Origin: an uncultured Anaerolineae bacterium
GTDB lineage: Bacteria > Chloroflexota > Anaerolineae > S016-19
Assembly (NCBI GenBank): GCA_964507175.1
Contig: CAZDOZ010000001.1
Location: 1-51,152, forward strand
Direction: 5' to 3'
Length of the DNA: 51,152 bases
The notes below the pieces were generated by a model, which was not told the origin of the DNA, searched no databases, and worked only from the letters and a program-made list of their open reading frames with translations. Positions 3,842-51,152 of this stretch are shown here, in pieces (position 1 is the first letter of the stretch; every line of letters starts with the position of its first letter). Made by a program: the position numbers and the translations under genes.

Positions 3842-3972
3842 GCGTCCTGGAGCAGCGCTGGCAAAGTGGTGCAATAGGGTGATCCGGGGGCTAGTTCCAC
3901 GGGGTTAACCTGGCACCTCACGGCAGGCAGAAAAGGACTGGGGCATCTTGTGATAGTCTCGGAGCAGTAACT

Positions 3973-13606: not shown

Positions 13607-13626
13607 AACATCCTTTCCACTGCTTC

Positions 13627-13908: not shown

Positions 13909-14065
13909 CTTTACTCGTGATCCTCCTCGATTTTCCTTTTGTATGTCGTGGAGCGCCCTATTTGACCCCAGCACTGCCACGCTTTCTGTTTCTGATAAGA
14001 TGCACATCCGTGCCGGCGCACCGGATGTGGGTCTCTCTGCACCTGACGCGCTGCCGTATTGTAAC

Positions 14066-15391: not shown

Positions 15392-15453
15392 CTGTGTTTC
15401 CCCTATGCATCTATGCTACCCAGGGCATCGTTAATGCACCTGGACAACAAAGA

Positions 15454-15482
15454 ATTCTACTATATGCCCACTCGACCGTCAA
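15454..15482 (-). promoter_or_regulatory. sigma70-type promoter candidate for ffh operon
   Basis: On the minus strand: TTGACG (15482-15477), 17-nt spacer, TAGAAT (15459-15454). The -35 is one arm of the palindrome CGTCAAATTGACG. Confidence 0.4.
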
Positions 15483-15483
15483 A

Positions 15484-15513
15484 TTGACGATACTCCCCAG
15501 GGCAGGTTATAAT
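15484..15513 (+). promoter_or_regulatory. sigma70-type promoter candidate for yqeY-pgpH-ybeY-dgkA
   Basis: TTGACG (15484-15489), 18-nt spacer, TATAAT (15508-15513). Confidence 0.45.
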
Positions 15514-15581
15514 TGTTGTTGTGCATCGACACAAAGCAAGATCGCCCGTCAGCAAATGACAACCATAGGAGGCATAAATTC

Positions 15582-16040
15582 ATGGGACTCAAGGAACAGA
15601 TAGACCGAGACCTCAAAGAAGCCATGCGGAGCGGGGACAAGACGCGCAAGCTGGCGCTCCGATCTCTGAAAACCGCCATGCTGAATGCAGAGAAATCAGG
15701 CGAAAAAGCACACGAGCTGAGCGATCAGGAGATCGTTTCCATAATCATGAGGGAGGTAAAACAGCGCCGGGATTCCATAGAGGAATATCGGAAAGGAGGG
15801 CGCGAGGACCTGGCGGCCGATGAAGAGGCTGAGATGAGAGTTCTTGGAACCTATCTGCCCAAAATGATGACGGAAGAGGAGATCGAGGTCAAGGCCAGAG
15901 AGGTAATAGCCAGAGTTGGAGCGCAGGATCTGCACGATATCGGCAAAGTTATGAAGCCACTCATGGCAGAGCTCAGGGGCAAAGCCGACGGGGCCGTCGC
16001 GAATAAAGTCGTCAGAGACCTGCTGTCGGGCAGGGCTTGA
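15582..16040 (+). CDS. yqeY: GatB/YqeY domain protein
   Basis: MGLKEQIDRDLKEAMRSGDK..LR.LK.A matches the YqeY family. AGGAGG RBS precedes ATG 15582. The upstream TTG extension was rejected. Confidence 0.8.
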   Translation: MGLKEQIDRDLKEAMRSGDKTRKLALRSLKTAMLNAEKSGEKAHELSDQEIVSIIMREVKQRRDSIEEYRKGGREDLAADEEAEMRVLGTYLPKMMTEEEIEVKAREVIARVGAQDLHDIGKVMKPLMAELRGKADGAVANKVVRDLLSGRA

Positions 16041-16052
16041 CAGGGGGTATCC

Positions 16053-18290: not shown

Positions 18291-18738
18291 ACCATTTGCC
18301 ACCCTCGTGGATCAGGGGGACCTGGAAGCCGCTGCAGTTGAGACTCTGGAAAGCGAGAACGTAGTCGAGGGTGAGATGACGGTGGTGGTCACGGACGACG
18401 AGACCGTGCGCGGCCTGAACCGGCAATACCGTGGGGTGGATGCACCCACCGATGTCCTCTCGTTTCAAACCGGAGGGGATGATCAGGGATTTGTCTCTTC
18501 GCCGGAGTCCGCCGGGTACCTGGGGGACGTGGTGATCGCCTATCCATTCACTGCAGTTCAGGCTAAAGAGGCGGGCCGGTCCGTACAGCACGACCTGATT
18601 CTTATGGTGATCCATGGCACTCTGCACCTGCTGGGATACGATCACGCCACCTCGGAAGAGGAAAGAGAGATGTGGAAGAAGCAGGATGCCATCCTGCGCC
18701 GTCTGACCGGAGACCAGCCATCGGACACCCCCGAATAG
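18271..18738 (+). CDS. ybeY: rRNA maturation endoribonuclease YbeY
   Basis: Metal site HGTLHLLGYDH and NRQYRGVDAPTDVLSF. Start is ambiguous: GTG 18271 is preferred, GTG 18202 is possible. Either start overlaps the pgpH end. Confidence 0.85.
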   Translation: MHLQVDEPFATLVDQGDLEAAAVETLESENVVEGEMTVVVTDDETVRGLNRQYRGVDAPTDVLSFQTGGDDQGFVSSPESAGYLGDVVIAYPFTAVQAKEAGRSVQHDLILMVIHGTLHLLGYDHATSEEEREMWKKQDAILRRLTGDQPSDTPE

Positions 18739-19210: not shown

Positions 19211-20242
19211 ATGGGCGAAAGCAGTGAGATATCCAACGTTCACGACCATTTCTTCAAGGAGGTGTTCTCCAGGAAAGAAACGGCCAGCAACCTCATTGAG
19301 CGATTCCTTCCTGCGGAGGTGGTGAGGATACTTGATCTCTCGTCCCTGGAGAGCAGCAAGGGTTCATTTGTGGATCCTGAGCTACGCGAGCACTACTCCG
19401 ACCTGTTGTACAGGGTGGATATACGAGGGGGTGGTGCTGCTTACGTTTACGTGCTGTTTGAGCACAAAAGCTACCCTGACAGGCAGGTAGCGTTTCAAGT
19501 ATTGCGCTACATGGTGCGGATATGGGAGCACATGGTAAGGCAGGGGGAACGGCTGGTTCCTATAATTCCGATGGTGGTGTATCACGGGCTTGGCAGGTGG
19601 AGAGTAGGGGATAGCTTTGGTGAGTTGTTGAATTCGCCGGAGGAGTTGAAGGCTTTCCAGCCGGACTACAGGTACCAGCTTCTTGATCTTTCTCGGTACA
19701 GTGACGAAGAGTTGAAGTCAGGGGTGCTGAGGGGTGTTCACCTGCTGTTGTTGAAGTACATTTTGCGTCCTGACCTGAGGGAGCACGTGTGGGAGATATT
19801 CTCGTTGATGGAGGACCTTCTGGCGCGGGAGGATGGGCTGGAGTGGTTGGAGGTCATGATAAGGTATCTGTCTCAGGCTACGGACAGGATCACTGAGGAG
19901 GAGCTACGGGAAGCTGTCGAGTCAGTATTTGCAGAGGAGGGAGGTAGGATCATGGGAACCATAGCTGAGAAATGGGTAGAGCAAGGCCTGGAGCAAGGGA
20001 TAAAGCAGGGTCTGGATCAAGGCCTGGCAGAAGGATTCCGGAAAGGGCTTCTTTCTGGCATAGAGATGGGGCTTGAACTTCGGTTTGGGTCGGCAGGGCT
20101 GAAGCTTCTGCCGGAGATCTACCGGGTAAAGAATGTGGCGGCGCTCCAGGCGATACATGAGGGGCTGAAGACAGCGTCCAGTCTGGAGGAGTTGCGGGAG
20201 ATATACCTTCCCTACGTGGAAAAGGGAAACAAAGAGGGATAA
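19211..20242 (+). CDS. Rpn-family recombination-promoting nuclease / putative transposase (PD-(D/E)XK, YhgA-like), copy 1
   Basis: N-terminal HDHFFKEVF signature. YRVD..x13..FEHK fits a D...ExK nuclease core. C-terminal repetitive helical EQGxxQG domain is typical of Rpn/DUF4351 tails. Confidence 0.85.
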   Translation: MGESSEISNVHDHFFKEVFSRKETASNLIERFLPAEVVRILDLSSLESSKGSFVDPELREHYSDLLYRVDIRGGGAAYVYVLFEHKSYPDRQVAFQVLRYMVRIWEHMVRQGERLVPIIPMVVYHGLGRWRVGDSFGELLNSPEELKAFQPDYRYQLLDLSRYSDEELKSGVLRGVHLLLLKYILRPDLREHVWEIFSLMEDLLAREDGLEWLEVMIRYLSQATDRITEEELREAVESVFAEEGGRIMGTIAEKWVEQGLEQGIKQGLDQGLAEGFRKGLLSGIEMGLELRFGSAGLKLLPEIYRVKNVAALQAIHEGLKTASSLEELREIYLPYVEKGNKEG

Positions 20243-21334
20243 CATTGCCGGCTGCTCGCGGAGTTTTCTGATTCCTCCGAGCGGTTTCGTCTGCTATACG
20301 CGGGGAGATTATGGAAGAGAAATCCGTGGGAGACAAAGGGCCATCCAACGTCCATGATCATTTCTTCAAGGAGGTGTTCTCCAGGAAAGAAACGGCCAGC
20401 AACCTCATTGAGCGATTCCTTCCTGCGGAGGTGGTGAGGATACTTGATCTCTCGTCCCTGGAGAGCAGCAAGGGTTCATTTGTGGATCCTGAGCTACGCG
20501 AGCACTACTCCGACCTGTTGTACAGGGTGGATATACGAGGGGGTGGTGCTGCTTACGTTTACGTGCTGTTTGAGCACAAAAGCTACCCTGACAGGCAGGT
20601 AGCGTTTCAAGTATTGCGCTACATGGTGCGGATATGGGAGCACATGGTAAGGCAGGGGGAACGGCTGGTTCCTATAATTCCGATGGTGGTGTATCACGGG
20701 CTTGGCAGGTGGAGAGTAGGGGATAGCTTTGGTGAGTTGTTGAATTCGCCGGAGGAGTTGAAGGCTTTCCAGCCGGACTACAGGTACCAGCTTCTTGATC
20801 TTTCTCGGTACAGTGACGAAGAGTTGAAGTCAGGGGTGCTGAGGGGTGTTCACCTGCTGTTGTTGAAGTACATTTTGCGTCCTGACCTGAGGGAGCACGT
20901 GTGGGAGATATTCTCGTTGATGGAGGACCTTCTGGCGCGGGAGGATGGGCTGGAGTGGTTGGAGGTCATGATAAGGTATCTGTCTCAGGCTACGGACAGG
21001 ATCACTGAGGAGGAGCTACGGGAAGCTGTCGAGTCAGTATTTGCAGAGGAGGGAGGTAGGATCATGGGAACCATAGCTGAGAAATGGGTAGAGCAAGGCC
21101 TGGAGCAAGGGATAAAGCAGGGTCTGGATCAAGGCCTGGCAGAAGGATTCCGGAAAGGGCTTCTTTCTGGCATAGAGATGGGGCTTGAACTTCGGTTTGG
21201 GTCGGCAGGGCTGAAGCTTCTGCCGGAGATCTACCGGGTAAAGAATGTGGCGGCGCTCCAGGCGATACATGAGGGGCTGAAGACAGCATCCAGCCTGGAG
21301 GAGTTGCGGGAGATATACCTTCCCTACGTGGAGG
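19235..21334 (+). repeat. tandem direct duplication of the Rpn gene (unit offset 1112 bp)
   Basis: 19235-20222 aligns with 20347-21334. Between about 19247-20176 and 20359-21288 I found no mismatch by eye. A few synonymous differences occur only at the edges. Confidence 0.85.
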
Positions 21335-21354
21335 AAAAGGACGGAGACGACTGA
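20311..21354 (+). CDS. Rpn-family recombination-promoting nuclease / putative transposase, copy 2
   Basis: 329 internal residues are identical to copy 1. Only the extreme N- and C-terminal tips differ. Confidence 0.85.
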   Translation: MEEKSVGDKGPSNVHDHFFKEVFSRKETASNLIERFLPAEVVRILDLSSLESSKGSFVDPELREHYSDLLYRVDIRGGGAAYVYVLFEHKSYPDRQVAFQVLRYMVRIWEHMVRQGERLVPIIPMVVYHGLGRWRVGDSFGELLNSPEELKAFQPDYRYQLLDLSRYSDEELKSGVLRGVHLLLLKYILRPDLREHVWEIFSLMEDLLAREDGLEWLEVMIRYLSQATDRITEEELREAVESVFAEEGGRIMGTIAEKWVEQGLEQGIKQGLDQGLAEGFRKGLLSGIEMGLELRFGSAGLKLLPEIYRVKNVAALQAIHEGLKTASSLEELREIYLPYVEEKDGDD

Positions 21355-40930: not shown

Positions 40931-41002
40931 AGGCCTGTTTTCCCCCGCGCCTCGGCGGCATAATTTGAAAACATGTTACTATTCAGCCCCCCAGCAGTAG
41001 AA

Positions 41003-41245
41003 CGCTGATGACGCTGATTTTCGCTGATCTTTTTCTGGTTTTATTTGCCTTATCTGCGGGTATCTGCGTGAAATCTGCGGAATCCGCTTTCGATTTGTTC
41101 AAGGCTGAACAGTTACGAAAACATTCTAACAGAGTCCTGCATCGGCGGTCAAAAGCACCTTCATCCGCGCGTCTGGGAATGCTTTGGGGCAGATTGCACA
41201 GTCTATTCCGAAAATTGAACGCAGATGAACGCTGATCTCCGCTGG
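41003..41245. repeat. array of helically phased CGC(W)GAT / ATC(W)GCG heptamers in the rlmD upstream region
   Basis: CGCTGAT at 41003, 41012 and 41022. ATCTGCG at 41052, 41062 and 41073, plus ATCCGC at 41082. ATCCGCG at 41163. CGCAGAT at 41220, CGCTGAT at 41230, CGCTGG at 41240. Spacing within clusters is 9-11 bp. Confidence 0.5.
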
Positions 41246-41402
41246 ACAGGCACGAGACTTGCCCCCTTGGGGTAGTTCCCCACATTCCTCTTGCTAGGCA
41301 GTCAGTAAGCCCGATGGCGTAGTTGTGCGCGTGTTCTGCCCTCATCCACCCCCAAGGGCGCAGCGCCGCGCAAAGCAGTTCCTTTCGGCGTTTCGGTGCG
41401 GC

Positions 41403-41442
41403 AACAAAAAGCGGCGGAGTCTCCGCTGGAGAACACCGCCGC
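41403..41442 (-). terminator. rho-independent terminator after the GltD-like gene
   Basis: Minus-strand reading: GCGGCGG..TCTCC-AGC-GGAGA..CCGCCGC, followed by TTTTTGTT. Confidence 0.7.
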
Positions 41443-41469
41443 AAGTGTAAGCGGTTTGACGTCACCGGA

Positions 41470-42927
41470 CTAGTGCCCTGTTCTCTTCTTCTCCAAATAC
41501 TCTGCCATCGCCTCGGCCGCCTTGCGCGCCCCTGCGAGGGCCGTTACCACCAGATCGGGGCCATTGACATTGTCACCTCCCGCATATAGGCCTTCCCTGC
41601 TGGTCTCTCCAGTCTCAGGGTCCACCTTTATGAGTCCCCATTTATCGCACTCCAACCATGGTTCAGTTTTCTTGAAAATGGGATCGGGCCAATATCCGAT
41701 TGCAAGCACCACCAGATCCACATCTATCGTGAATTCTGTCCCCTCGATTGGGATTGGCCTGCGCCTGCCTGACTCGTCCGGCTCCCCTAACCTCATACGG
41801 ATGCATTCCATGGCCGCGACACGGCCGTCCTCGCCAGGGATGAATTTCGTCGGGACCGTCAGATACTCGAAATGTGCACCCTCTTCCTCTGCCAGATGCT
41901 TGTCCTTGAGACCCGCCGGCATTTCCACCTCGGATCGACGATAGACGCATGTGACCTCCTTGGCCTTCATCCGGAGGCTAGTGCGCAGGCAGTCCATCGC
42001 TGTATCGCCACCACCTATTACTGCCACTCGTTTCCCTTCCACCTGTGGTTTTTCCCTCATGCCAGGGGGAAGCATTTCGGGAGGCAGGTTCAGTTTCACA
42101 AGGTATTCTGTGGCATGATAGACCCCTGGGAGGTCCTCCCCTGGAACACGCATGCTGGCGTCTATTTCCGCACCAGTGCCCAGGAACACTGCGTCGTACT
42201 CCTCTATCAGATCGTCGAGAGTCGGGTTGCCTTCGGCGCAAATTCGGGTGTTGCAGACAAATTTCACACCGAGTTTTTCTTCCAGGTACCGTATCTTGTA
42301 CCTCGGAATTTCCTTGTCCAGCTTGAAATTGGGAATGCCATACACCAGCAGGCCGCCGGGGTTAGGCCATGCTTCATATACGGTAATGCTATGCCCTAGC
42401 TTCGCAAGCCTTTCGGCCACCAGGAGTCCGGCAGGGCCAGATCCGATCACTGCTACTTTCTGCCCTGTAGGAGCCACCTGAGGTGGCTCGGGGTATCCCA
42501 CCGTTTTGCGCTCATAAGTGGCTGCCGATGCCTCAAGCATGCCGATGTGTACCGGGTCCCTCAATTTGCCAATAACGCAGGCACCCTCGCATAGACGCTC
42601 CTGCGGGCATACCCTGCCACATATCTCCGAAAAGCCGCTGGTCTGGTGGAAAACCCTTATCCCATCTATTATCTCCCCTTGGCTCATGTGCCAGAGGGCT
42701 AAGGGAATATTGTTATGCAGGGGACAGGCCTCCACGCACGGCTGTGGGGCACGGCATATTATGCAGCGCGAAGCCTCGACTTTGATCGTATCCAAGTCGT
42801 ACAAGTGGAAAGCTTCCTCGAAATCGTTGAGCCTTTCTTCCGCCGGACGATAAGGAATGTCGTTTGCGGGGATCTTTGCGCGGGATTTGCGATCCACGCG
42901 CAGGTGGCTTGTGTCGTAGGAAACCAT
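41470..42927 (-). CDS. GltD/NfnB/SudA-like NAD(P)H-dependent FAD/Fe-S oxidoreductase (glutamate synthase small-subunit family)
   Basis: N-terminal Fe-S cysteines CIICRAPQPCVEACP and CGRVCPQERLCEGAC. Two dinucleotide folds: VAVIGSGPAGL and VAVIGGGDTAMD. Confidence 0.85.
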   Translation of the reverse strand: MVSYDTSHLRVDRKSRAKIPANDIPYRPAEERLNDFEEAFHLYDLDTIKVEASRCIICRAPQPCVEACPLHNNIPLALWHMSQGEIIDGIRVFHQTSGFSEICGRVCPQERLCEGACVIGKLRDPVHIGMLEASAATYERKTVGYPEPPQVAPTGQKVAVIGSGPAGLLVAERLAKLGHSITVYEAWPNPGGLLVYGIPNFKLDKEIPRYKIRYLEEKLGVKFVCNTRICAEGNPTLDDLIEEYDAVFLGTGAEIDASMRVPGEDLPGVYHATEYLVKLNLPPEMLPPGMREKPQVEGKRVAVIGGGDTAMDCLRTSLRMKAKEVTCVYRRSEVEMPAGLKDKHLAEEEGAHFEYLTVPTKFIPGEDGRVAAMECIRMRLGEPDESGRRRPIPIEGTEFTIDVDLVVLAIGYWPDPIFKKTEPWLECDKWGLIKVDPETGETSREGLYAGGDNVNGPDLVVTALAGARKAAEAMAEYLEKKRTGH

Positions 42928-43114
42928 TTTCCAGAATCCTCCTTACATGATAGCACCACACTTAACCGTGGTGACTGCCGGGCACTTTTCCCGCCGTCCT
43001 GGACGTAGGCCCGGTGTGTTGTCTGCACACTAAATGAGGGACGTGACTGTAGGCATGCTCTACGCTTAAATGAGCTCCTACCCTCTTGCATGAGTGGTAT
43101 GCCCAGCAGATAGC

Positions 43115-44011
43115 TCAGTGCAGAAATCGGAACAACGCCAGCAGTATCATCATCAAGCCCAGGTACGGGCTCAAAAGCAAGTAGGCCTTCTTGATATAAG
43201 TTCTGTGGTTAGTTCTCAAGTACCTGCAGGCAAAGTAAAGGGAAGGGATAGATAACAGCAGAGAGGCCAGAAAAGGTCTAATAGCGCAGTATCCCATCAG
43301 ATGTACTCCAAACACCACAGCGTTGATCAGCAAGACAATTGTGCTCGACGCGATGACCCCTTTCTTGACCCCTATAATCGCTGGCAGCATGGGCACGGCT
43401 GCTCTCTCGTAGTCCTCGACGTAGTAGCTGGATATCAGCCAGATGTGGGCCATTGACCAGAGAGCTATGATGAGGACAAGGGATATAGAAAGGCCGTCCA
43501 ATCTGCTGGAATAGGCCACGTACCCTGCAAGAGCAGGCATCCCTCCTGCAACTCCACCTACCGATACAGAAAAAGGGCTCCTCCTTTTCAGCAAAACCGT
43601 GTACAAAAGCAGATCGATTATGAAGCCAGAGAACACGGCAAATCCGCACAAAAGATTGATGCCGGCCGCAAGGAGTATCCCTGGAATCACAAGGGCAACA
43701 GAGATGGAGAAGGCTGTGCTTGGGGATATCTGCTCGGATGGTAGCGCTCTGTCTTTTGTCCTGAACATCAGAGCGTCGATATCCCTATCGAAGTACATGT
43801 TCAGCCCTGTGGTACCTGATACCGCAAGAAGAAGTGCAAAGGTCACGAGAGGAAGGGCCACGTCCACCCTTCCTCCCGAAGCTATGAGATACCCTAGCAT
43901 TCCTGTCAGAACCAGGAGCGCTGTTTGAGACGGTTTGAATGTAGAGAGCAGTATCGTCAGGCCTGAGCCTGCTGCTCTTTTTCTTTCCTGCTGTAAGTTT
44001 CCGACATCCAT
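43115..44011 (-). CDS. ctaB: UbiA-family prenyltransferase, heme O synthase (CtaB/CyoE)-like
   Basis: FKPSQTALLVLT, NMYFDRDIDALMFRTKDRALP, VGGVAGGMPALAGY, EDYERAAVPMLP. Start ATG 44011 was chosen; it overlaps the upstream gene by 55 nt and has no clear RBS. Confidence 0.72.
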   Translation of the reverse strand: MDVGNLQQERKRAAGSGLTILLSTFKPSQTALLVLTGMLGYLIASGGRVDVALPLVTFALLLAVSGTTGLNMYFDRDIDALMFRTKDRALPSEQISPSTAFSISVALVIPGILLAAGINLLCGFAVFSGFIIDLLLYTVLLKRRSPFSVSVGGVAGGMPALAGYVAYSSRLDGLSISLVLIIALWSMAHIWLISSYYVEDYERAAVPMLPAIIGVKKGVIASSTIVLLINAVVFGVHLMGYCAIRPFLASLLLSIPSLYFACRYLRTNHRTYIKKAYLLLSPYLGLMMILLALFRFLH

Positions 44012-45072
44012 AGTGCCAGTGGCCTGTAAATGGCATGGGCAAACTTGGTAAACGGTGCCGTGAGCAACAAATCGAACACTATTACCAAGTGCACGGCGAA
44101 AGTTATATAGGCTGGCCAGGGCAGATTGACCCACATGAATACATCCAGCAAAAAGCCCGTGAGACCCGCCAGGAACATCAGCCATACGAACACCCAGTCA
44201 CTGTGGTGAGAGTATTTCGAGTAACTGTCTTTTATGAAATACCTCCTGTAGAGATAGTATCCCGACCCATAAAGCAAGACGAGCCCTGATACTATTCCTA
44301 TTACATGTGGCACAATCTTCAGTCCACTGTTTACGGAGATCAGAAAATCTATGCCGAAAGCAAGGATAGTCGCCAAAAACAACCCCAAAAAGCCCCATAA
44401 CAGCGCCAGATGGGCCCAGTAGCGGTTTTTGTCCTCACATTCGTCGAACGTTTTCTGAATAAACACCTCATTGATTAATATATCCCAGAAACTCTGCAGC
44501 CACTCCCCCAGACTTGCCTGTATCCCGTCCTTGTGCAAGCTTCTCCACATTACCACCAGTTGGACTATGGCGAAGAACGCTATTACAACCCCGAGGACTA
44601 TACCAGCGTAATGGAGGAAGTCCAACGTTATGAACGACAGCGGATCCACCTTGGTCAGGTTTGGATTCGGATTGTGGAAGTAGGCTATGCCCGCTATAGC
44701 GGCAACGGTAAGGACAAGCCAGGTTACCGCCGCGCTGGTGCCGTTGTAGAAAAGGTCTGCGATTTTCCCAAGGGAGTAGCGCCGTATAGCATAGCGACGG
44801 AGTGCCATCATGAGCCCACCAGGGTCTGCCTGCCTGGGACAGGTATCCGTGCACTCCCCGCAGTAGTAACACCGCCACAGCTCGGGCCCGCTCAATATCT
44901 TATCTTCCAGGCCCAGCATAGAATACCTTATCATCATCCTTGGGAAGGAATACTCTTCCGTGGAGAGAGGGCATATCGCTGTACAGTTTCCGCAACTGTA
45001 GCAAGCGCTTATGTCAAAAGCCCCGAGTTCCTTCACCTTGTCCAAGAAGCCTGGATTGACTTTTGCCATCAT
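43957..45072 (-). CDS. QmoC-like fusion protein: HdrC-like 2x[4Fe-4S] domain plus HdrE/NarI-like six-helix cytochrome-b membrane domain
   Basis: CYSCGNCTAICP and CYYCGECTDTCP in the first ~100 aa, then six hydrophobic helices with conserved-looking His residues. C-terminal PFTKFAHAIYRP is typical of NarI/DsrM/HdrE-type proteins. Confidence 0.8.
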   Translation of the reverse strand: MMAKVNPGFLDKVKELGAFDISACYSCGNCTAICPLSTEEYSFPRMMIRYSMLGLEDKILSGPELWRCYYCGECTDTCPRQADPGGLMMALRRYAIRRYSLGKIADLFYNGTSAAVTWLVLTVAAIAGIAYFHNPNPNLTKVDPLSFITLDFLHYAGIVLGVVIAFFAIVQLVVMWRSLHKDGIQASLGEWLQSFWDILINEVFIQKTFDECEDKNRYWAHLALLWGFLGLFLATILAFGIDFLISVNSGLKIVPHVIGIVSGLVLLYGSGYYLYRRYFIKDSYSKYSHHSDWVFVWLMFLAGLTGFLLDVFMWVNLPWPAYITFAVHLVIVFDLLLTAPFTKFAHAIYRPLALWMSETYSRKEKEQQAQA

Positions 45073-45350
45073 TTCCCCCTTTTCACCAGCGTGTACTTAT
45101 GGTAGCCATCCTCGGTAACATCACCTGTTTCTATGATGGCTTCATACTTTCTCATCGTCATCATCCAGTACATTACCTCGGAGGTGGGCATGGAAACAAT
45201 CTCTGCCACTTCAGGAACTGTCTTCGGTTCGGATTCCAAAGCTTTGGTTATCAGCTTTTTAATCTTTGCGAATTCCTGGGTCTTTGTCATCAGTTCCTTT
45301 GGGACTTTCATCTTTTTCTTCATCTCAAGGTAGGTTTTTGTCTTCGACAT
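45069..45350 (-). CDS. small lysine-rich protein, possible winged-helix fold, unknown function
   Basis: 93 aa. GGAGG RBS. Starts 1 nt after the hdrA-like stop and overlaps the QmoC-like start (ATGA). The C-terminal half TVPEVAEIV..PTSEVMYWMMTMRKYEAIIETG..DGYHKYTL looks like HTH plus wing. Confidence 0.5.
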   Translation of the reverse strand: MSKTKTYLEMKKKMKVPKELMTKTQEFAKIKKLITKALESEPKTVPEVAEIVSMPTSEVMYWMMTMRKYEAIIETGDVTEDGYHKYTLVKRGK

Positions 45351-45351
45351 C

Positions 45352-47088
45352 TCACTCCCCCTCCAAGAGCGCATCTATTGCTGCCAATATAGTCTGGTCT
45401 TCATAACCTTTGACCTGAATGGCATCCGCCGGGCAAACCGGGACGCATCCACCGCACCCTTTGCAGAGCAGCTCGGTGACTTCAGCAACCTCCTTGCCCC
45501 GCTGTTCGTCCTTAACCTTTTTGATGGCTTCGTAGGGGCATGCCTCCAGGCAAGCACCACACCACTCGCATCTGTCTGGGTCTACGAACGCTACCGTTGG
45601 CTGCAACTCGGTGTACCCTTTCATAACAAGTGCTGCCGCCTTCGAAGCAGCTGCGAGGGCAGAGGCTGTGCTTTCGGAGGAGTTTTTTGGTCCCTGAGCA
45701 ACGCCAGCGATGTATACTCCATCAATCACCGTCTCCACAGGTCGCAGCTTGGGGTGGATTTCATTGTAGAATCTATCCCGCCCAATCGGAATCTTGAGCG
45801 CGTTTGTCAGGTCAGCGTTTTGTCTCGGTACCATGCCGGTCACTAGCACGACCAGATCCGGGTATATCTCAACTTCTTCCCTATTTGTCAGAAGGTCTTT
45901 AACCCTCACCCTCAGCGTGCCGTTGGAAGAATCTACAACAGGTGGCTCATCCTCATCGAATTTGATGAAGACCGACCCGAGCTTCTGGGACTCCTCGTAC
46001 AGGGTCTCGTACTTTCCATATGTCCTTATATCCCTGTACAAGTGGAATTGGTGGATAGTCGGATCCACCTTTGAAACCAGGATCGATGTGTGGATGGTCG
46101 CGTTACAGCAGTAGCGAGAGCAGTAAGTGTTCGCGTTTTCTACGTCTGGCTTCTGGCGAGAACCGACGCAATAGATATAAGCTACGCTTTTCACCTGTTT
46201 TCCATCGTACCGCAGCTCTCCATCCGAGGCCTCCACCATTTCTTTGAACTTAGGCAGAGTGACCACCCCTTTCATGCCGTATCCGTATTCCCCTTGCTTC
46301 GGCTCGTATGTATCGAATCCTGTCGCTACTATGATGGCGCCGACTTTGAGGTCGATGGTTTCGCCAGGCTTGTCGCCCACCTTTATCGTTACTTCGAAGT
46401 TCCCCAGGTATCCGGCCTTTTTCAGAAGCTCGGCTTTCGTGAATATCGTTATCTTGGAGCCTCTCTTGGCAATCTCAGACATCAGCTCATCTATAATCTC
46501 TTTTCCGTTTTTGTCGTGTGGATACATTACGGAGAACTTACTTACCCAGCCGCCGACTTTCTCCTCTCGTTCTATGAGATAGACATATATCCCCATGTCG
46601 GCCAGAACGAGCGCTGCTCTAAGTCCGGCTATTCCCCCTCCTATGATGAGGGCTTTTTTGACCGTTTCTACCTCTAGTGGTTTAAGGGGTTTGGATAGTC
46701 TTGCTTTGGCTATACCAGCTCTTACCAGTTCTATTGCTTTCTCCGTTGCCCCTTCCCAATCCTCTCTGTGAGCCCATGAATCTTGCTCCCTTATGTTCAC
46801 CTGGACGTACTGGTAAGGGTTCAACCCGGCCCTTTTTGCAACGCCCCTGAAAGTAAGGAGGTGAAGTTTCGGTGAACAAGATGCGACAACGAGACCATCG
46901 AGCTTCTTCTCCTTTATGTCGTCTATCATCTCTTGTTGGCCGGCATCTGAGCAGGCAAACATGGTGGTTTTGGCGACGACGACGCCGGGCTCGTTTGCTA
47001 TCGCATCTCTGACTCTTTTCACATCTACATAATCAGAGATGTTTCCACCGCAGTGGCAGATGTATACCCCAATTCTCCTCTCAGTCAC
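45352..47088 (-). CDS. HdrA-family flavoprotein with N-terminal Cys domain and C-terminal 2x[4Fe-4S] ferredoxin domain
   Basis: GTG start with GAGGAGG RBS. IGVYICHCGGNI, FAD fold LIIGGGIAGL, HdrA-type cluster motif CVGSRQ..CSRYCC. C-terminal CEWCGACLEACP and CKGCGGCVPVCP. Confidence 0.88.
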   Translation of the reverse strand: MTERRIGVYICHCGGNISDYVDVKRVRDAIANEPGVVVAKTTMFACSDAGQQEMIDDIKEKKLDGLVVASCSPKLHLLTFRGVAKRAGLNPYQYVQVNIREQDSWAHREDWEGATEKAIELVRAGIAKARLSKPLKPLEVETVKKALIIGGGIAGLRAALVLADMGIYVYLIEREEKVGGWVSKFSVMYPHDKNGKEIIDELMSEIAKRGSKITIFTKAELLKKAGYLGNFEVTIKVGDKPGETIDLKVGAIIVATGFDTYEPKQGEYGYGMKGVVTLPKFKEMVEASDGELRYDGKQVKSVAYIYCVGSRQKPDVENANTYCSRYCCNATIHTSILVSKVDPTIHQFHLYRDIRTYGKYETLYEESQKLGSVFIKFDEDEPPVVDSSNGTLRVRVKDLLTNREEVEIYPDLVVLVTGMVPRQNADLTNALKIPIGRDRFYNEIHPKLRPVETVIDGVYIAGVAQGPKNSSESTASALAAASKAAALVMKGYTELQPTVAFVDPDRCEWCGACLEACPYEAIKKVKDEQRGKEVAEVTELLCKGCGGCVPVCPADAIQVKGYEDQTILAAIDALLEGE

Positions 47089-48377
47089 TTCTGCCTCCTC
47101 GTCGTTTCCATGTAGGCTATCGCCTCTGCAGAGGCAGCCCCTGCCGACAGTATGGTGTCAGGTATATCTTTGGGCCCGTAAGCGGTTCCTGCCACAAAAA
47201 CACCTTCTATGCTTGTCCTTGCCGGGCTCAAATCTTCGTCAACCTGCTTTACATAATAGTAGTCATCCAATTCCAGTTTCTCCCCCTTGAATATCGAGGC
47301 TACCTCTGGAGTTGGGAGCAGTCCGACGGAGAGAACAACCATGTCGTGTTCAGCCTCTTGTACTCTTCCGCCATTCTCTATGTCCTCGTACCTCAGGAGA
47401 AGGTTCCCGTTTTCTAGTTCCTCTATTTTCGCAACTCTACCCTTTACGAATTGGACTCCCATATCCCGGGTTTGTTTGAAGAACTCTTCGTACCCTTTGC
47501 CGTAAGCCCTTATGTCCATATAGTAAAGCGTCACATCAGCAAGGGGAAGGGCTCCCAATATAAGCTGGGCCTGTTTGATTGAATACATGCAGCATATCTG
47601 GGAGCAAAGAGGGTTGCCAACTGTTCTATCTCTTGAGCCAGTACAAAGGACATAGGCGATGTTTTCCGCCTCTTTGCCATCCGAAGGCCTCAGAACCGTA
47701 TTAAAAGGCCTTGTCGGGGCAAGCAGCCTATCCATTTGCATGGCATTTATGACATTCTTGAATTTCCCGAATCCGTACTGAGGCTTCCGTTCCGCGGGGA
47801 AGAGCCTAAACCCGGTTGCAACAATAACCGATTTTACATTCACTTCCAGTTCTTCCGGTTCCTGGGTGAAGTCAATGGCATCTGCAGGGCAGGCTCTTTC
47901 GCATGCGCCGCAGAGGATACAATTGTCTATGTCGACTACAGCGACTTTGGGGATAGCCTGCGGAAAGGGTATGTAAACAGCCTTTCGTCCAACGAGGTCG
48001 AAATTGAACTCATCGTGTTCAACATTCACCGGGCAAGCTCTTTCGCATTCTTGGCATCCAGTACAGGCAGTCTCATTGACGTATTTGGGTTTCTTTAGGA
48101 TTTTTGCACTAAATCCATCCCCATCTTTCCTGACTTCCGTGACTTCCGTATACGTCATGGTGGTGATGTTCGGATGGTGCGCTGTCTCCGCCATTTTCGG
48201 TGTACTGATACAACTTGCACAGTCAAGAGTGGGGAAGACCTTGCTCAGAAGAATCATTTTGCCGCCAATGCTCGGCTCTTTCTCGACGAGCAGAACCTTG
48301 TAACCTGCATCCCCAAGATTGATCGCCGACTCCATGCCGGCTATCCCCCCTCCTATGATTAAGACATCATATTCCAT
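47085..48377 (-). CDS. HdrA/QmoA-B-family flavoprotein with inserted 2x[4Fe-4S] ferredoxin domain
   Basis: YDVLIIGGGIAGM FAD fold. Inserted CTGCQECERACP and CILCGACERACP. HdrA cluster motif CTGSRDRTVGNPLCSQICC. Start ATG 48377 has a GGAGG RBS; the upstream 40 codons were rejected. Confidence 0.85.
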   Translation of the reverse strand: MEYDVLIIGGGIAGMESAINLGDAGYKVLLVEKEPSIGGKMILLSKVFPTLDCASCISTPKMAETAHHPNITTMTYTEVTEVRKDGDGFSAKILKKPKYVNETACTGCQECERACPVNVEHDEFNFDLVGRKAVYIPFPQAIPKVAVVDIDNCILCGACERACPADAIDFTQEPEELEVNVKSVIVATGFRLFPAERKPQYGFGKFKNVINAMQMDRLLAPTRPFNTVLRPSDGKEAENIAYVLCTGSRDRTVGNPLCSQICCMYSIKQAQLILGALPLADVTLYYMDIRAYGKGYEEFFKQTRDMGVQFVKGRVAKIEELENGNLLLRYEDIENGGRVQEAEHDMVVLSVGLLPTPEVASIFKGEKLELDDYYYVKQVDEDLSPARTSIEGVFVAGTAYGPKDIPDTILSAGAASAEAIAYMETTRRQK

Positions 48378-48388
48378 TATTTCACCTC

Positions 48389-48841
48389 CTAACCTTCTGC
48401 ACTCTTCGAGCCTTCTGCTGTTGATGGGCCAAGTCCCTTGAGGGCGTTGAAGAAATTGTTCATGTGGTTCGCGAATGGCTCCGCACAAACTGAGCAAATT
48501 GCCCCCATCTTCACCCTTTGGGGACTATACCCCTTTTCTTTCAGAAGGTTCTGTGCTTCATCGGCTATCTTCGCTGTTCTAGTTGTACAGTCTGGGAGGA
48601 AGGGACAGTCTGTCCCATCCGCGGCGATGAACACACCATCGAACCCCTTCTCAATGGCATGGAGAATCCATTTGGGCTTTATTCCGCTTGAGCATGGAAG
48701 GGATATAACATCCACTGTAGAAGGATACACCAAATGCGAGCTACCAGCCAGGTCTATTCCGGGGTCTGAAATGCTGTCAGTCGAAAAAACGAGAATCCTA
48801 GGAGCAAACTCTTTATTCTCCTCTTTTTTCTCTGCACTCAT
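48389..48841 (-). CDS. MvhD/FlpD-like (methyl-viologen-reducing hydrogenase delta subunit family) protein
   Basis: ILVFS..DLAG..YP..V..ISLPCSSGIKPKWILHAIEKGFDGVFIAADGTDCPF..C pattern of the FlpD family. Start ATG 48841 has a GGAGG RBS. Confidence 0.78.
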   Translation of the reverse strand: MSAEKKEENKEFAPRILVFSTDSISDPGIDLAGSSHLVYPSTVDVISLPCSSGIKPKWILHAIEKGFDGVFIAADGTDCPFLPDCTTRTAKIADEAQNLLKEKGYSPQRVKMGAICSVCAEPFANHMNNFFNALKGLGPSTAEGSKSAEG

Positions 48842-48976
48842 ACCTTGTCTACCTCCATCATCTCCTTCAAACAAAGGGAAACTTCCGAAGCTATGGCACA
48901 GTTGCTTTGTCTTGGCTATCTTTTGTTGCAAGCCTCGGAAGTCTCAATCCCTTAAAATGCTTGGCTTTTCGCATCG

Positions 48977-49231
48977 TCACCTTGTTTTCTTGACGAAGAT
49001 CCTCCAGTATCCGGGCTCCTCCAGGATGCCCAAGTGCTCGTACTTCATCTTCTTTGCCCACAGAGGTATGTCCCTGTTGGTCCCCGGGTCCGACGAGAGG
49101 ACTTCCAGCACTCCACCAACAGGAACTGCCGCTATCGACTTTTTCGCTGCCAAAAGCGGACCAGGACAAGATGTCCCCCTTGCATCAACCACTTTGTCCG
49201 ACTTGATGTTTCTCAATTCTTCTTCAGTCAT
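48977..49231 (-). CDS. tusA: TusA/SirA-family sulfur carrier protein
   Basis: VVDARGTSCPGPLL (CPxP active-site motif). 84 aa. AGGAGG lies 6 nt before ATG 49231. Confidence 0.85.
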   Translation of the reverse strand: MTEEELRNIKSDKVVDARGTSCPGPLLAAKKSIAAVPVGGVLEVLSSDPGTNRDIPLWAKKMKYEHLGILEEPGYWRIFVKKTR

Positions 49232-49349
49232 TTGATTCCTCCTTAGATAGTGAGTGGCCAGAGGCATACACCAATCTCTCATTGCCCCTGGAAAACCCAG
49301 ACTCTCAAAATGCTGGGATTGAGCCAGAAAACAAGTACAGAGCTAGATT

Positions 49350-49763
49350 TTAGACAAAGAATGTCGCATCTGCCTTTTCTGCCATATCCATGAACTCACC
49401 AGCGCCAATGACGTCATCGACAATGTCCAGGAAATCTTCTTTCTTTCCTCCCCAAATCTGGAAAGCGAGAGAGCACAGGTGAATCCTCACAGGGGCCGCT
49501 TCCCTTGCCTGCTTCAGTAAATCAAGCCAGGAAGGTGCCTTAAGCTCTACGAGGGCTTTATGAACCTGGGGCTTTAGCTCTGAGAATTCCGAAAAGTTGG
49601 CGTTTCCCTCTACGACATCTTTTCTGAAAGCGTAGGAACCCCAGAGCTGGAGGAAAATGTCAACTTCCATATCCTGTGCAGCTGCACCACCAACGAGGAC
49701 AGCTAATCCAGTTAGCTTATCCACGCTACCAGAGAAAAGCACAACCGCCATCTTCTTAGCCAT
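49350..49763 (-). CDS. DsrE/DsrF-like family protein (COG2210-type), paralogue B
   Basis: MAVVLFSGSVDKL..A..GAAA.. fold start, a single cysteine in HLCSLAF, C-terminus ATFFV. GAGGAGG lies 6 nt before ATG 49763. Confidence 0.75.
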   Translation of the reverse strand: MAKKMAVVLFSGSVDKLTGLAVLVGGAAAQDMEVDIFLQLWGSYAFRKDVVEGNANFSEFSELKPQVHKALVELKAPSWLDLLKQAREAAPVRIHLCSLAFQIWGGKKEDFLDIVDDVIGAGEFMDMAEKADATFFV

Positions 49764-49882
49764 TTGAACCTCCTCGTTCATTACTCATACATTGACACAG
49801 ACTACTTTCACGACATTGCTACACAACAACAATCGAGCGTAGCGCTATCCTACGACCATAATACCTTCCTGCATAATGTGTC

Positions 49883-50371
49883 TCAGACGAATAATGTTAT
49901 TTGAGACTCCCTAGCTTCGGCAATAAATGTCCCAACTCCGACGGGCTCGCCTATCCCATCTACCAGATCTTCCTTTTTTATTTCCATCACGTCCATGCTC
50001 ATTTGGCATGGCACAATATTTACCCCCAAATCGATGGCATTCTGTAGGAGCTCATGAAGGGGAGTCACATTGTGTTTTTTCATCATCTTCTTGAACATCC
50101 AATTACCGAGTCCGCCGAAGGCGTATTTGGACGGAGCAAGGTTGTCGATGCCTCCCGGGTTTAGCAAACCGAGTATCTTTCCAAAGAAACTATCCCCAGT
50201 ATGTTTTTTCTTCTGTAATGCCCTGAGCCCCCAAAAAGTAAAGAACATGGTAACATCCATGTCAAATGCTACTGCTCCTGTTGCTATGATAAATGCACCC
50301 ATTATCTTGTCCATATCCCCGCTAAGGATCACCATGGATAATTTTTCGTTCTTTTCTTCCTCTTCTTCCAT
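49883..50371 (-). CDS. DsrE/DsrF-like family protein (COG2210-type), paralogue A
   Basis: LSMVILSGDMDKIMGAFIIATGA.., a cysteine in VPCQMSMDV, C-terminus ITLFV. Acidic N-terminal MEEEEEK. Confidence 0.75.
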   Translation of the reverse strand: MEEEEEKNEKLSMVILSGDMDKIMGAFIIATGAVAFDMDVTMFFTFWGLRALQKKKHTGDSFFGKILGLLNPGGIDNLAPSKYAFGGLGNWMFKKMMKKHNVTPLHELLQNAIDLGVNIVPCQMSMDVMEIKKEDLVDGIGEPVGVGTFIAEARESQITLFV

Positions 50372-50582
50372 AATTGCCTCGCTTTGTCTTTAAGATTTCT
50401 GCCCCGTGGGTTCCTGGGGGTGCAGGACACATCCCTTTATGGGATGACTTCCGCTTTTACATATCTCGATCAGTTGCATCACCAAAGTCGTGTCGTGCAA
50501 CACTTTACATACTTCTGCTTCTAATATAGATCGTAACTTTCTCAACTGTCAAGTCTGGCATACATACTCCACATCCAGGCGC

Positions 50583-50611
50583 ATTATAATGCCCCCCACC
50601 AGAGATGTCAA
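50583..50611 (-). promoter_or_regulatory. consensus sigma70 promoter driving the dsrE-tusA-mvhD-hdrA cluster
   Basis: Minus strand: TTGACA (50611-50606), exactly 17 nt, TATAAT (50588-50583). The -10 lies inside the 12-bp palindrome GCATTATAATGC (50581-50592). Confidence 0.6.
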
Positions 50612-50867
50612 GTTCGGTTGGGAAATTTTTCACGGGAAGAGATTCTTAGCCCTTAAGAGCGTCGCCTCTGCACCGGAGCAGGTGATCGCTGGTCAGAAAA
50701 TCCCCGCCGTCACTCCACTTCCTCCTCGGAATGATGGGGCAGCTGTGTCTTCAGGTGTAAGTCCTGCGAGCAAGGCCTTGCGGCGCTGACGTTCTCGGAC
50801 ACACGGCGCCCGCATGGCTTCCGAACGTTCTCCATGCCCTTCCTGCGTATTTCCTTCGGTCCGTTTT

Positions 50868-50895
50868 TTGACTTTTTCGGAAATACGATTAAAAT
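50868..50895 (+). promoter_or_regulatory. promoter candidate for divergent regulator gene
   Basis: TTGACT (50868-50873), 16-nt spacer, TAAAAT (50890-50895). AGGGAG RBS at 50905-50910. Confidence 0.35.
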
Positions 50896-50914
50896 TAAAG
50901 ACAAAGGGAGAATC

Positions 50915-51152
50915 ATGAAACTGACTCGCCGGCAAAAAGATTTCTTGAATAAGTTCCTCTCTCTATATCGAGAGGCTGGAGAGCCGTTGCACTATACCAC
51001 GGTTGCCAGGCGAATGCACCTGGGTAACGTGACCGCATACGAAATGCTCCGGTTGCTGGAATCCAAAGGATTGGTGAAATCGGAGTACCGACATTCCAGA
51101 ACGAGCAGCCCAGGCAGATCTACTGTATTCTTCCGCCCAGCGGACAGAGAGA
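50915..51152 (+). CDS. winged-helix (DtxR/MarR-like N-terminal domain) transcriptional regulator, 3' partial at window edge
   Basis: Not in the ORF track because it runs off the window. My translation is MKLTRRQKDFLNKFLSLYREAGEPLHYTTVARRMHLGNVTAYEMLRLLESKGLVKSEY..., a helix-turn-helix plus recognition-helix pattern. Confidence 0.6.
   Translation, partial: MKLTRRQKDFLNKFLSLYREAGEPLHYTTVARRMHLGNVTAYEMLRLLESKGLVKSEYRHSRTSSPGRSTVFFRPADRE

Follow-up and report, generated by a model that had tools for sequence, protein, structure and literature searches.

In the solved Hdr complexes, electrons pass from the input enzyme to HdrA by way of MvhD, on to the high-potential acceptor through HdrC, and to ferredoxin through the ferredoxin domain inserted into HdrA. 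Canonical QmoB carries an MvhD-like domain fused to its C-terminus. A variant termed type II Qmo, with QmoA and QmoB subunits nearer to HdrA, is described by Neukirchen et al. (2023, PMC10504309) as having a function "to be clarified"; it occurs with or without Apr/Dsr and is found in the sulfate reducers V. moutnovskia and Ammonifex. In the Mvh-Qmo-Hdr cluster of Ca. Methanoglobus the hydrogenase MvhAG is encoded next to mvhD, and the preprint proposes bifurcation of electrons from H2 to menaquinone (MQ) and ferredoxin (bioRxiv 10.1101/2023.09.08.556235). In Desulfotomaculum reducens (D. reducens) a formate dehydrogenase takes the place next to mvhD (Dred_1325-30; PMC4759654), and HdrL is described as an HdrA with an NfnB-like insert (PMC2702500). 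The stretch of DNA analysed here (the window: 51,152 nucleotides, contig CAZDOZ010000001.1, from an uncultured Anaerolineae bacterium) contains an operon in which genes for the sulfur carriers DsrE and TusA adjoin those for an MvhD-like protein, two HdrA-type flavoproteins and a QmoC-like membrane anchor. It is a real, well-delimited and strongly conserved operon, which probably marks a widespread, unstudied route by which sulfur chemistry is tied to the pools of quinone and NAD(P)H.

The literature searched yielded no characterised system with the same order of genes, in line with an earlier note that had been made from the letters of the window. A full-text literature search likewise returned no paper linking such a complex to TusA/DsrE, to an MvhD of the CxxC type or to the small subunit described below; Appel et al. 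2021, Chernyh et al. 2020 and Tanabe et al. 2019 fell outside the scope of this search, and an earlier mention there is possible.

Organization of the operon

The ten open reading frames (ORFs) of the operon lie on the minus strand, from 50371 to 41470. The genes, coordinates, lengths, GTGA and ATGA overlaps and 187-nt gap reported in the earlier note agree with the ORF list and the sequence, and all its family assignments were reproduced in Pfam and NCBIfam profile searches, two of them with scores under the curated cut-offs. The features are, in the direction of transcription and with the divergent gene last:

50583-50611, minus strand: sigma-70-type promoter TTGACA-N17-TATAAT, 12 of 12 consensus positions
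50523-50552, minus strand: second promoter-like site TTGACA-N18-TATATT, 11 of 12 consensus positions
49883-50371, minus strand: DsrE2-type carrier A, 162 aa (Pfam DrsE_2, 1e-47)
49350-49781, minus strand: DsrE2-type carrier B, 143 aa (DrsE_2, 6.6e-14)
48977-49231, minus strand: TusA, 84 aa, in ORF 48977-49282 (Pfam TusA, 2.5e-22)
48389-48841, minus strand: MvhD-like protein, 150 aa (FlpD, 1.1e-26)
47085-48377, minus strand: HdrA1, QmoA-like, 430 aa (HdrA-type models)
45352-47088, minus strand: HdrA2, QmoB-like, 578 aa (HdrA-type models)
45069-45350, minus strand: small ORF, 93 aa, putative winged-helix subunit (no Pfam family)
43957-45072, minus strand: QmoC-like anchor, 371 aa (NCBIfam qmoC, 1e-64, 219.2 bits)
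43115-44011 or further upstream, minus strand: UbiA/CtaB-like prenyltransferase, start uncertain (UbiA, 7.7e-47)
41470-42927, minus strand: GltD/NfnB/SudA-like protein, 485 aa (GltD/Fer4_20, 1e-27 to 1e-130; Pyr_redox_2)
41410-41427, minus strand: intrinsic-terminator-like hairpin followed by a T-run, 3' of gltD
50915-51152, plus strand: divergent putative winged-helix regulator, running off the window end (weak LexA_DNA_bind match)

The HdrA-type models match HdrA1 and HdrA2 with E-values of 1e-149 and 1e-154 in the Pfam/NCBIfam scans. From mvhD onwards the genes are tightly packed: the TAG stop of mvhD lies within TTAGGAGGTG (GGAGG), 11 nt before the hdrA1 ATG, hdrA1 and hdrA2 share the GTGA at 47085-47088, the small ORF and qmoC share the ATGA at 45069-45072, and the ubiA-like gene overlaps the 3' end of qmoC. 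The first four genes are spaced by gaps of ~100-135 nt, and the 187-nt gap precedes gltD. Both transcription signals proposed earlier are present. The promoter sequence at 50611-50583 is the sole perfect match in the window and does not occur in 100 shuffled sequences, and the hairpin with its T-run (41427-41410) follows gltD. The promoter is kept in the 94%-identical leader of L005, a 97%-identical locus in the metagenome-assembled genome (MAG) "Anaerolineae bacterium S016_19" (WFSD01000206.1); the 200-nt leader could be aligned solely to a 94%-identical relative, and this alignment is uninformative. A search with Rfam in 41000-51152 gave no RNA element at E <= 1.

A conserved module with sulfur carriers next to MvhD

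An alignment of QmoC-like proteins was scanned against one genome per GTDB species, which yielded 565 relatives. The best 80 of these 565 loci were kept, and the window proteins were compared with their ORFs by blast; counts out of 56 refer to those loci among them whose MvhD-like protein has a CxxC signature. In 55 of the 56 loci tusA is located directly upstream of the mvhD gene of the CxxC type, the exception being cut by a contig edge, and in 23 of these 55 it practically abuts mvhD. At least one gene of the DsrE type is present in 52 of the 56 loci, and a DsrE of the B type stands upstream of tusA in many loci. Because TusA adjoins the flavoprotein/QmoC genes so regularly across many phyla, a functional tie between the sulfur carriers and that complex, as put forward in the earlier note, is supported by the gene neighbourhoods.

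The gene order TusA, CxxC-type MvhD, HdrA1, HdrA2, a protein of ~80-105 aa and QmoC recurs in ~20 bacterial and archaeal lineages. The locus is not a one-off combination of the carrier front end of sHdr systems with a Qmo anchor; the gene-neighbourhood search suggested in the earlier note shows the order to be widely spread in both domains. Judged by gene order, the TusA-linked complex is a widespread conserved module.

The three carriers retain their reactive cysteines. Active-site Cys22 in the CPGP motif of TusA is kept in 54 of 54 homologues, Cys122 of DsrE A in 37 of 37 and Cys103 of DsrE B in 38 of 38. The true start of TusA is most likely the ATG at 49231, since this start gives a protein of 84 aa, as in all relatives, and is preceded by GGAGG 7 nt upstream. 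The nearest solved structures of DsrE A are 3PNX and 2QS7 and that of DsrE B is 2QS7 (3.7e-25); by these matches both proteins are of the DsrE2 type and not of the DsrE3A type.

The remodelled MvhD subunit

Alignment of the window protein with the MvhD of solved complexes (5ODC) reveals that the cysteine set of canonical MvhD/FlpD (CC-x2-C, MCSG, GCHxGDCHY) is largely lost. The CC-x2-C site reads STDS, the CNWC motif is gone, and GCHxGDCHY is cut down to a lone DC, so that the cysteines of PCSS and DC alone remain. A C-terminal AIC[ST]VC motif has been gained, which provides the CxxC (C116/C119); with one extra cysteine the window protein has five in total. In the family alignment the CxxC is present in the MvhD of every TusA-linked locus and the other cysteines vary, to the point that the aligned part of four Chloroflexota proteins (L049, L050, L057 and L077) contains no cysteine besides these two.

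The MvhD of six loci is canonical or otherwise without the CxxC (L012, L014, L033, L035, L039 and L079); these loci belong to Bathyarchaeia, Nitrososphaeria and one Planctomycetales MAG. None of the six has an adjacent tusA, and the small protein is found in L079 only. In the first five the genes are arranged differently, as qmoC-hdrA-hdrA-mvhD, and L079 has a split cluster. With the CxxC in all TusA-linked loci and TusA in none of the other six, the presence of the sulfur carriers is correlated, as far as the family alignment goes, with one particular remodelling of MvhD. The loss of the canonical motifs and the tracking of TusA by an invariant CxxC argue that this protein is not a standard [2Fe-2S] electron-transfer module, contrary to the ordinary role first given to it. 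The earlier note had placed the sulfur chemistry at the flavoprotein pair; because the CxxC tracks TusA perfectly, the remodelled MvhD qualifies better as a candidate site of sulfur reactivity. The NCBIfam HdrA2 model (Methanosarcina-type) has MvhD at positions 640-775, after HdrA up to 642, and we place the remodelled MvhD on the HdrA2 side because MvhD there follows the C-terminal ferredoxin domain.

HdrA1, HdrA2 and the GltD-like protein

Both flavoproteins show the HdrA fold with the FAD-binding motif, CSxxCC and ferredoxin-type domains in residue-level alignments to 5ODC, 8RVU and 9SFI. HdrA1 aligns to residues ~146-564 of methanogen HdrA in these structures, with E-values of 1e-119 to 1e-121; it consists of the FAD/thioredoxin-reductase-type domain with an inserted 2x[4Fe-4S] ferredoxin domain and retains DCxxC and CSxxCC. 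HdrA2 aligns to residues 1-239 and 311-651 (E 1e-126) and contains the N-terminal cysteine domain, the FAD domain and the C-terminal ferredoxin domain, without the inserted domain and without DCxxC; its cluster cysteines are all conserved. DCxxC occurs in 63 of 70 HdrA1 versus 1 of 70 HdrA2 sequences. Since domain content and DCxxC distribution are complementary, HdrA1 and HdrA2 look like complementary halves of an HdrA homodimer, with one copy per peripheral domain.

HdrA1 of 26 loci carries a GltD-like module at residues ~148-165, inside its inserted ferredoxin domain. A short HdrA2 (562-597 aa), which has no inserted domain of its own, accompanies the fusion in 26 of 28 fusion loci, and loci without the fusion have mostly a long HdrA2 of 636-664 aa. 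The window has a short HdrA2 (578 aa) and a separate gltD, as does its 85%-identical relative L001; gltD is a separate adjacent gene in L001/L002. By this Rosetta-stone evidence, the fusion of a homologous module into HdrA1 in 26 loci, the window GltD-like protein is a subunit of the complex that would communicate through the ferredoxin-type arm of HdrA1, and the link between the two suspected earlier is borne out.

Proposed winged-helix subunit and membrane anchor

The 93-aa protein, which contains no cysteine, was modelled with AlphaFold2 as a winged helix with the succession H-H-H-H-E-E and a predicted local distance difference test (pLDDT) score of 82.8. Its best fold matches are SmtB, ArsR and MarR proteins, but these are weak (E ~1e-3). 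A word-indexed search with this protein reached 5 close relatives, and a full hidden Markov model (HMM) search was used instead, which recovered 287 clusters (50% identity) in 1.84 billion representatives. The small protein (~80-105 aa) is present in 55 of the 56 CxxC loci and always sits between hdrA2 and qmoC or hdrC; in three cases it is fused to the C-terminus of HdrA2 (L067, P0339 and P0389) and in one to the N-terminus of QmoC (P0366). A role as an operon-internal transcription factor, in keeping with its ArsR/MarR-like fold, was considered and dropped in view of the fixed position, the start-stop overlaps and these fusions, and the modelled winged-helix protein is read as a structural subunit. 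In P0376 (256 aa) a small winged-helix domain forms the C-terminus of a 2Fe-2S plus 4Fe-4S protein like the N-terminal part of NuoG/HydA, which points to the use of such a subunit in further, different complexes.

QmoC residues 3-101 match an HdrC-type di-cluster (2x[4Fe-4S]) domain. The statement that HdrC is missing is formally right in that there is no separate gene, and wrong in that this domain is present. The membrane part is NarI/HdrE-like (Nitrate_red_gam match), and its four conserved histidines, H154, H221, H328 and H346, would be enough for two haems b. The protein scores 219.2 bits with the NCBIfam qmoC equivalog model NF038018 and does not reach its cut-off of 300 bits. A further cysteine of QmoC, C212 (~44437-44439, minus strand), is 94% conserved within [DE]C[ED]; neither HdrC-type cluster has it as a ligand, and it lies in a loop predicted to be cytoplasmic, between membrane helices two and three.

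The UbiA/CtaB-like protein, at 201.1 bits, stays under the 210.3-bit cut-off of the heme O synthase model TIGR01473. Its gene is restricted to the closest relatives (L001/L002) and two Aminicenantes loci (L003/L004 and L006), where counterparts such as L001:11059-11943 and L003:11125-12015 overlap or abut the 3' end of qmoC. This limited distribution places it outside the conserved core, and it was dropped as a core component. Its linkage may reflect farnesylation of the QmoC haems in the organisms concerned, or may be coincidental.

Distribution, variants and regulators

Among bacteria the module was found in Aminicenantes, Acidobacteria, Actinomycetota, Krumholzibacteria, Chrysiogenales, Clostridia, Ignavibacteria/Bacteroidota, Chloroflexota, Phycisphaerae (Planctomycetota) and NC10, and among archaea in Acidilobaceae, Fervidicoccaceae, Heimdallarchaeota, Archaeoglobales and Thermoplasmata. 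The loci of Latescibacteria, Tiamatella, Njordarchaeota and some Nitrososphaerales are incomplete, with the downstream part only. Contigs of Fervidicoccaceae and Terriglobales (L088 and L089) carry a self-contained operon DsrE-TusA-MvhD-HdrA-HdrA-small protein-QmoC, with unrelated housekeeping genes on either side and without a further sulfur enzyme in the vicinity. Window QmoC is 56-65% identical to that of several Aminicenantes loci and 33-40% to that of other Chloroflexota, and the operon region (42001-50000) has a G+C content of 0.48-0.53 versus 0.55-0.60 in the remaining window. The lower G+C content and the closeness to Aminicenantes make horizontal acquisition of the whole module plausible.

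A soluble variant is encoded in the cultured Desulfofundulus salinus (L085:9745-16961, RBWE01000001.1) and in a Spirochaetia MAG (L086). Its core comprises TusA, the CxxC-type MvhD, an HdrA1::GltD fusion, HdrA2 and the small protein, followed, in place of QmoC, by a 100-aa HdrC-like protein, a CCG-domain HdrB-like protein and a DsrE. The gene content of this variant suggests that the quinone arm can be swapped for a disulfide-reductase arm. The same swap is known from QmoAB-HdrBC in Gram-positive sulfate reducers. The absence of HdrB claimed for the window stands, but HdrB is not alien to the system. The HdrB-like protein of the soluble variant seems to retain one complete CCG motif only, and L086 has in addition a second HdrA1::GltD paralogue and three ArsR-type genes.

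Clusters of neighbouring ORFs formed de novo around the best 80 of the 565 loci were mostly spurious antisense ORFs of high-GC genomes, and the real ones are ArsR, a third DsrE type, an ABC ATPase, LysR and a sigma-54 regulator only. No apr or sat gene was present among these conserved neighbours or in the gene-called loci (L001, L003 and L085-L089), where no query directed at AprA, Sat or DsrA was made. Regulator genes of the ArsR/HTH_5 type occur at 27 loci, and Rex-like ones (NADH-sensing type) at 4 Aminicenantes-type loci. The divergent gene at 50915 differs from both and is a candidate regulator of the operon. Its full-length homologue (L005:3244-3942) has 232 aa, with an N-terminal winged helix and an uncharacterised C-terminal domain.

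Proposed mechanism and alternatives

Standard potentials are about -270 mV for S0/H2S, -74 mV for menaquinone and -320 to -450 mV for NAD(P)H/ferredoxin. Because S0/H2S lies between the other two, and because TusA/DsrE fill the input slot next to mvhD, three pools (menaquinone, NAD(P)H and protein-bound sulfur) are apparently joined here, and a flavin-based electron con- or bifurcating complex that links menaquinone, NAD(P)H and sulfane sulfur bound to TusA/DsrE is the reading that we tentatively prefer, with a confidence somewhat short of even. From the architecture, gene content, conservation, fusions and cysteine patterns we infer assembly into one membrane complex of the CxxC-type MvhD, HdrA1, HdrA2, the winged-helix subunit and the QmoC-like anchor, together with the GltD-like module and the TusA/DsrE2 relay. 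HdrA1 and HdrA2 would form an asymmetric pseudo-dimer with one copy each of three electron arms around the flavins. The first arm would run from the HdrA core through the HdrC-like clusters of QmoC and the two haems b to menaquinone. The second would lead from the inserted ferredoxin domain of HdrA1 to the FAD of the GltD-like protein and NAD(P)(H), and in relatives without GltD would presumably serve ferredoxin. The third would connect the N- and C-terminal cluster domains of HdrA2 with the remodelled MvhD, at whose CxxC the sulfane sulfur on Cys22 of TusA and on the DsrE2 cysteines would be reduced or formed. In this anaerobic host the likelier direction is reductive, with NAD(P)H and menaquinol reducing TusA-bound sulfane sulfur to H2S; it is favoured on account of the host lifestyles and the Rex-type regulators. 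The complex would then dispose of electrons in the cytoplasm and re-oxidise the quinone pool as well. The more far-reaching claim of a new class of bifurcating enzyme, in which TusA/DsrE persulfide is the mid-potential substrate at an MvhD-fold CxxC and S0/H2S is reversibly coupled to menaquinone and NAD(P)H/ferredoxin, is possible but doubtful.

Several points weigh against this proposal. A persulfide as redox substrate, and the reduction or oxidation of any sulfur species, is deduced from patterns in the sequences, and the membrane variant has neither a CCG/HdrB-type site nor any other site known to reduce disulfides or persulfides. With its five cysteines the window MvhD may still bind an Fe-S cluster, and the CxxC could be a pair of cluster ligands rather than a redox-active dithiol. 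Reduction driven by NAD(P)H would be ~70 mV uphill at standard potentials, and the ferredoxin version alone would be near equilibrium. The assignment of the arms follows, by analogy, the solved methanogen complexes. About half of the related loci have no GltD within 10 kb. Finally, gltD and the first three genes sit 100-187 nt from the tightly packed core, so that the stretch from dsrE to gltD is no more than a candidate single transcription unit.

The same complex and sulfur site might work in the oxidative direction, which is unlikely yet is kept as the main rival because the standard potentials fit it better. Sulfide or thiol-bound sulfur would be converted to TusA/DsrE persulfide at the remodelled MvhD, and the electrons bifurcated downhill to menaquinone and uphill to NAD(P)+/ferredoxin, for which -270 mV lies suitably between -74 and -320 mV. 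Such an enzyme would stand in for sulfide:quinone oxidoreductase while conserving energy, with low-potential reductant as a direct product. Strict analogy with Hdr would likewise have the MvhD arm as input, the HdrC arm as high-potential exit and the inserted ferredoxin domain as low-potential exit, and the carriers occupy the donor slot next to mvhD, comparable to the formate dehydrogenase of D. reducens (PMC4759654). The hosts, however, belong mostly to anaerobic heterotroph or fermenter lineages; the Rex-type regulators at four loci suggest induction at high NADH, hence consumption of NADH; and no linked downstream enzyme for further oxidation of a persulfide was seen among the neighbours of the best 80 of the 565 loci or in L088 and L089.

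To a similar degree improbable is pure electron transfer, in which the complex is a bi- or confurcating NAD(P)H/ferredoxin:menaquinone oxidoreductase, like FixABCX or the proposed Mvh-Qmo-Hdr complex, and TusA, DsrE and the CxxC constitute a thiol/persulfide switch or an assembly factor. All cofactors needed for electron transfer from NAD(P)H to MQ and ferredoxin are indeed present without a sulfur substrate, the membrane form lacks a catalytic CCG domain, and bifurcation of H2 to MQ and ferredoxin has been proposed for a related cluster (bioRxiv 10.1101/2023.09.08.556235). Left unexplained are the near-universal, often translational coupling of two or three carriers with invariant cysteines and the exact tracking of MvhD ligand loss with TusA; moreover, with GltD on the ferredoxin-type arm, the MvhD arm still needs a third redox partner.

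Very unlikely, in our estimate, is delivery of a sulfur oxyanion adduct (thiosulfonate) by the carriers, with NAD(P)H being bifurcated and menaquinone as high-potential acceptor. Conversion of thiosulfate to sulfide and sulfite, at ~-400 mV, would provide the low-potential acceptor, so that NAD(P)H at -320 mV would lie between MQ and thiosulfate in a textbook bifurcation geometry, and flavins of the GltD/NfnB type do bifurcate in Nfn. DsrE/TusA homologues, namely archaeal DsrE3A/TusA, carry thiosulfonate according to PMC4175335, but both DsrE proteins here are of the DsrE2 type (2QS7, 3PNX), and GltD, being placed inside the ferredoxin-type arm, suits the role of acceptor or co-donor better than that of central donor. 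Nor was a conserved thiosulfate, tetrathionate or sulfite enzyme or transporter found nearby, among the neighbours of the best 80 of the 565 loci or in L088 and L089.

Least probable is an ordinary Qmo serving an AprAB encoded elsewhere in the genome, with TusA/DsrE as mere neighbours: the architecture does equal QmoA, QmoB and QmoC with MvhD split off, a relative is present in the sulfate reducer Desulfofundulus salinus, and type II Qmo is found in the sulfate reducers V. moutnovskia and Ammonifex, but type II Qmo occurs with or without Apr/Dsr (PMC10504309), QmoC has 219 bits against a cut-off of 300, apr and sat were not encountered in the window or in the undirected survey of neighbours and gene-called loci given above, and the signature of TusA, CxxC-type MvhD and small subunit occurs in lineages from which sulfate reduction is not known (Aminicenantes, Bacteroidota, Heimdallarchaeota and Fervidicoccaceae).

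If the con- or bifurcating sulfur complex proposed here is real, many uncultured anaerobes, including Asgard, Thermoproteota and Thermoplasmata archaea, would possess a cytoplasmic, energy-coupled sulfur reductase or sulfide oxidase, and with it a capacity for dissimilatory sulfur cycling in lineages without a Dsr, Apr, Psr or Sqr marker. If the carriers are real substrates, there would be an unrecognised route from S0/sulfide to the quinone and NAD(P)H/ferredoxin pools via bifurcation. Hosts such as Aminicenantes, Anaerolineae, Bacteroidota, Acidobacteriota and Asgard archaea are abundant in sediment and subsurface, where marker surveys score them as non-sulfur-cycling. The proposal would also give a function to type II Qmo and add a thiol-based input module to the Hdr/Qmo kit. 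Because the soluble variant is found in a cultured organism, Desulfofundulus salinus, the question is accessible to experiment.

Surrounding genes

The other window ORFs are housekeeping genes: tdk, a ChlI-like ATPase, GAF/PAS sensor kinases, rimM, rpsP, ffh, lepA, mreBCD, a PBP2-type transpeptidase, minC and a MacB-type ABC system. A CCG-domain HdrB, AprAB, Sat, Dsr, Sox and a GcvH-like LbpA are absent from the other window ORFs scanned, as the earlier note had stated for HdrB, AprAB/Sat and LbpA. Amid the housekeeping genes, tandem YhgA-like (Transposase_31) paralogues are located at 19211-20242 and 20311-21354 on the plus strand (both E 2e-57), and 3973-10894 (plus strand) encodes two very large adjoining sensor proteins with a start/stop overlap, one of 1037 aa with three GAF domains and PAS and the other a GAF histidine kinase of 1273 aa. 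In the 85%-identical relative L001, a cytoplasmic molybdopterin oxidoreductase (2610-4718) is encoded directly upstream of the DsrE gene, and a set comprising a NarG-like protein exported by the twin-arginine translocation (TAT) pathway, an FeS protein, a cytochrome b and a chaperone lies downstream of gltD (13555-18619); the segment corresponding to the upstream part falls beyond the end of the window.

Comparison with known systems

With QmoABC (type I, of sulfate reducers and green sulfur bacteria) the locus shares a short QmoA-like and a long QmoB-like HdrA-derived flavoprotein, both FAD/Fe-S subunits, and a membrane subunit in which an HdrC-like di-cluster domain is fused to a dihaem-b domain, with the link to menaquinone. 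Unlike QmoABC, HdrA2 ends after the C-terminal ferredoxin domain and MvhD, with altered cysteines, is encoded upstream by a gene of its own; a winged-helix subunit and an NAD(P)H module like GltD are added, and TusA/DsrE are obligately linked instead of aprBA. The locus fails to qualify as a canonical Qmo on the three defining points: the equivalog score, the fused MvhD and the linkage to apr. The closest entity described so far is the type II Qmo of Chernyh et al. (2020) and Neukirchen et al. (2023): the similarity to HdrA (E ~1e-120) and the broad taxonomic spread fit the account in PMC10504309, and on that published description the module would be a type II Qmo.

Compared with the methanogen HdrABC-MvhAGD complex (5ODC, 8RVU, 7BKB and 9SFI), the HdrA fold with FAD and all cluster motifs, the HdrC-like di-cluster domain, the MvhD-fold subunit and the arrangement of three electron arms around a bifurcating flavin appear to be preserved. 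The homodimeric HdrA is, however, replaced here by what would be a heterodimer of two complementary truncated HdrAs; HdrB and the hydrogenase are absent, the HdrC domain is fused to a haem-b anchor, and MvhD lacks the canonical cysteine ligands.

The sHdr systems (PMC11094781, PMC4175335) also encode a relay of TusA and DsrE-family sulfur transferases with an HdrA complex, and the conserved active-site cysteines of the carriers are found in both. In contrast to sHdr, the window ORFs scanned include neither the CCG subunits HdrB1/HdrB2 nor a GcvH-like lipoate-binding protein (LbpA), a CCG protein being confined to the soluble-variant loci L085 and L086. The carriers here are of the DsrE2 rather than the DsrE3 type, two HdrAs, the remodelled MvhD and a quinone anchor are present, and the hosts belong mostly to anaerobic heterotroph lineages instead of sulfur-oxidising lithotrophs.

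The NfnAB, SudAB and HdrL systems resemble the locus in that electrons enter or leave an Fe-S chain through a GltD-type module with FAD and 2x[4Fe-4S], and the fusion to HdrA in relatives is as in HdrL. Unlike in these systems, the module is encoded by a separate gene in the window, and relatives insert it in the QmoA-like HdrA1 of a TusA-linked, membrane-anchored complex. The canonical-MvhD clusters of Bathyarchaeia, Nitrososphaeria and one Planctomycetales MAG differ in being without TusA and mostly without the small subunit. Mvh-Qmo-Hdr and Dred_1325-30 likewise combine MvhD, two HdrAs and QmoC (or HdrBC) with an input enzyme adjoining mvhD, and flavin-based bifurcation to quinone or disulfide and ferredoxin is proposed or assumed for them; in contrast to both, the input slot is taken here by TusA/DsrE and an MvhD of the CxxC type.

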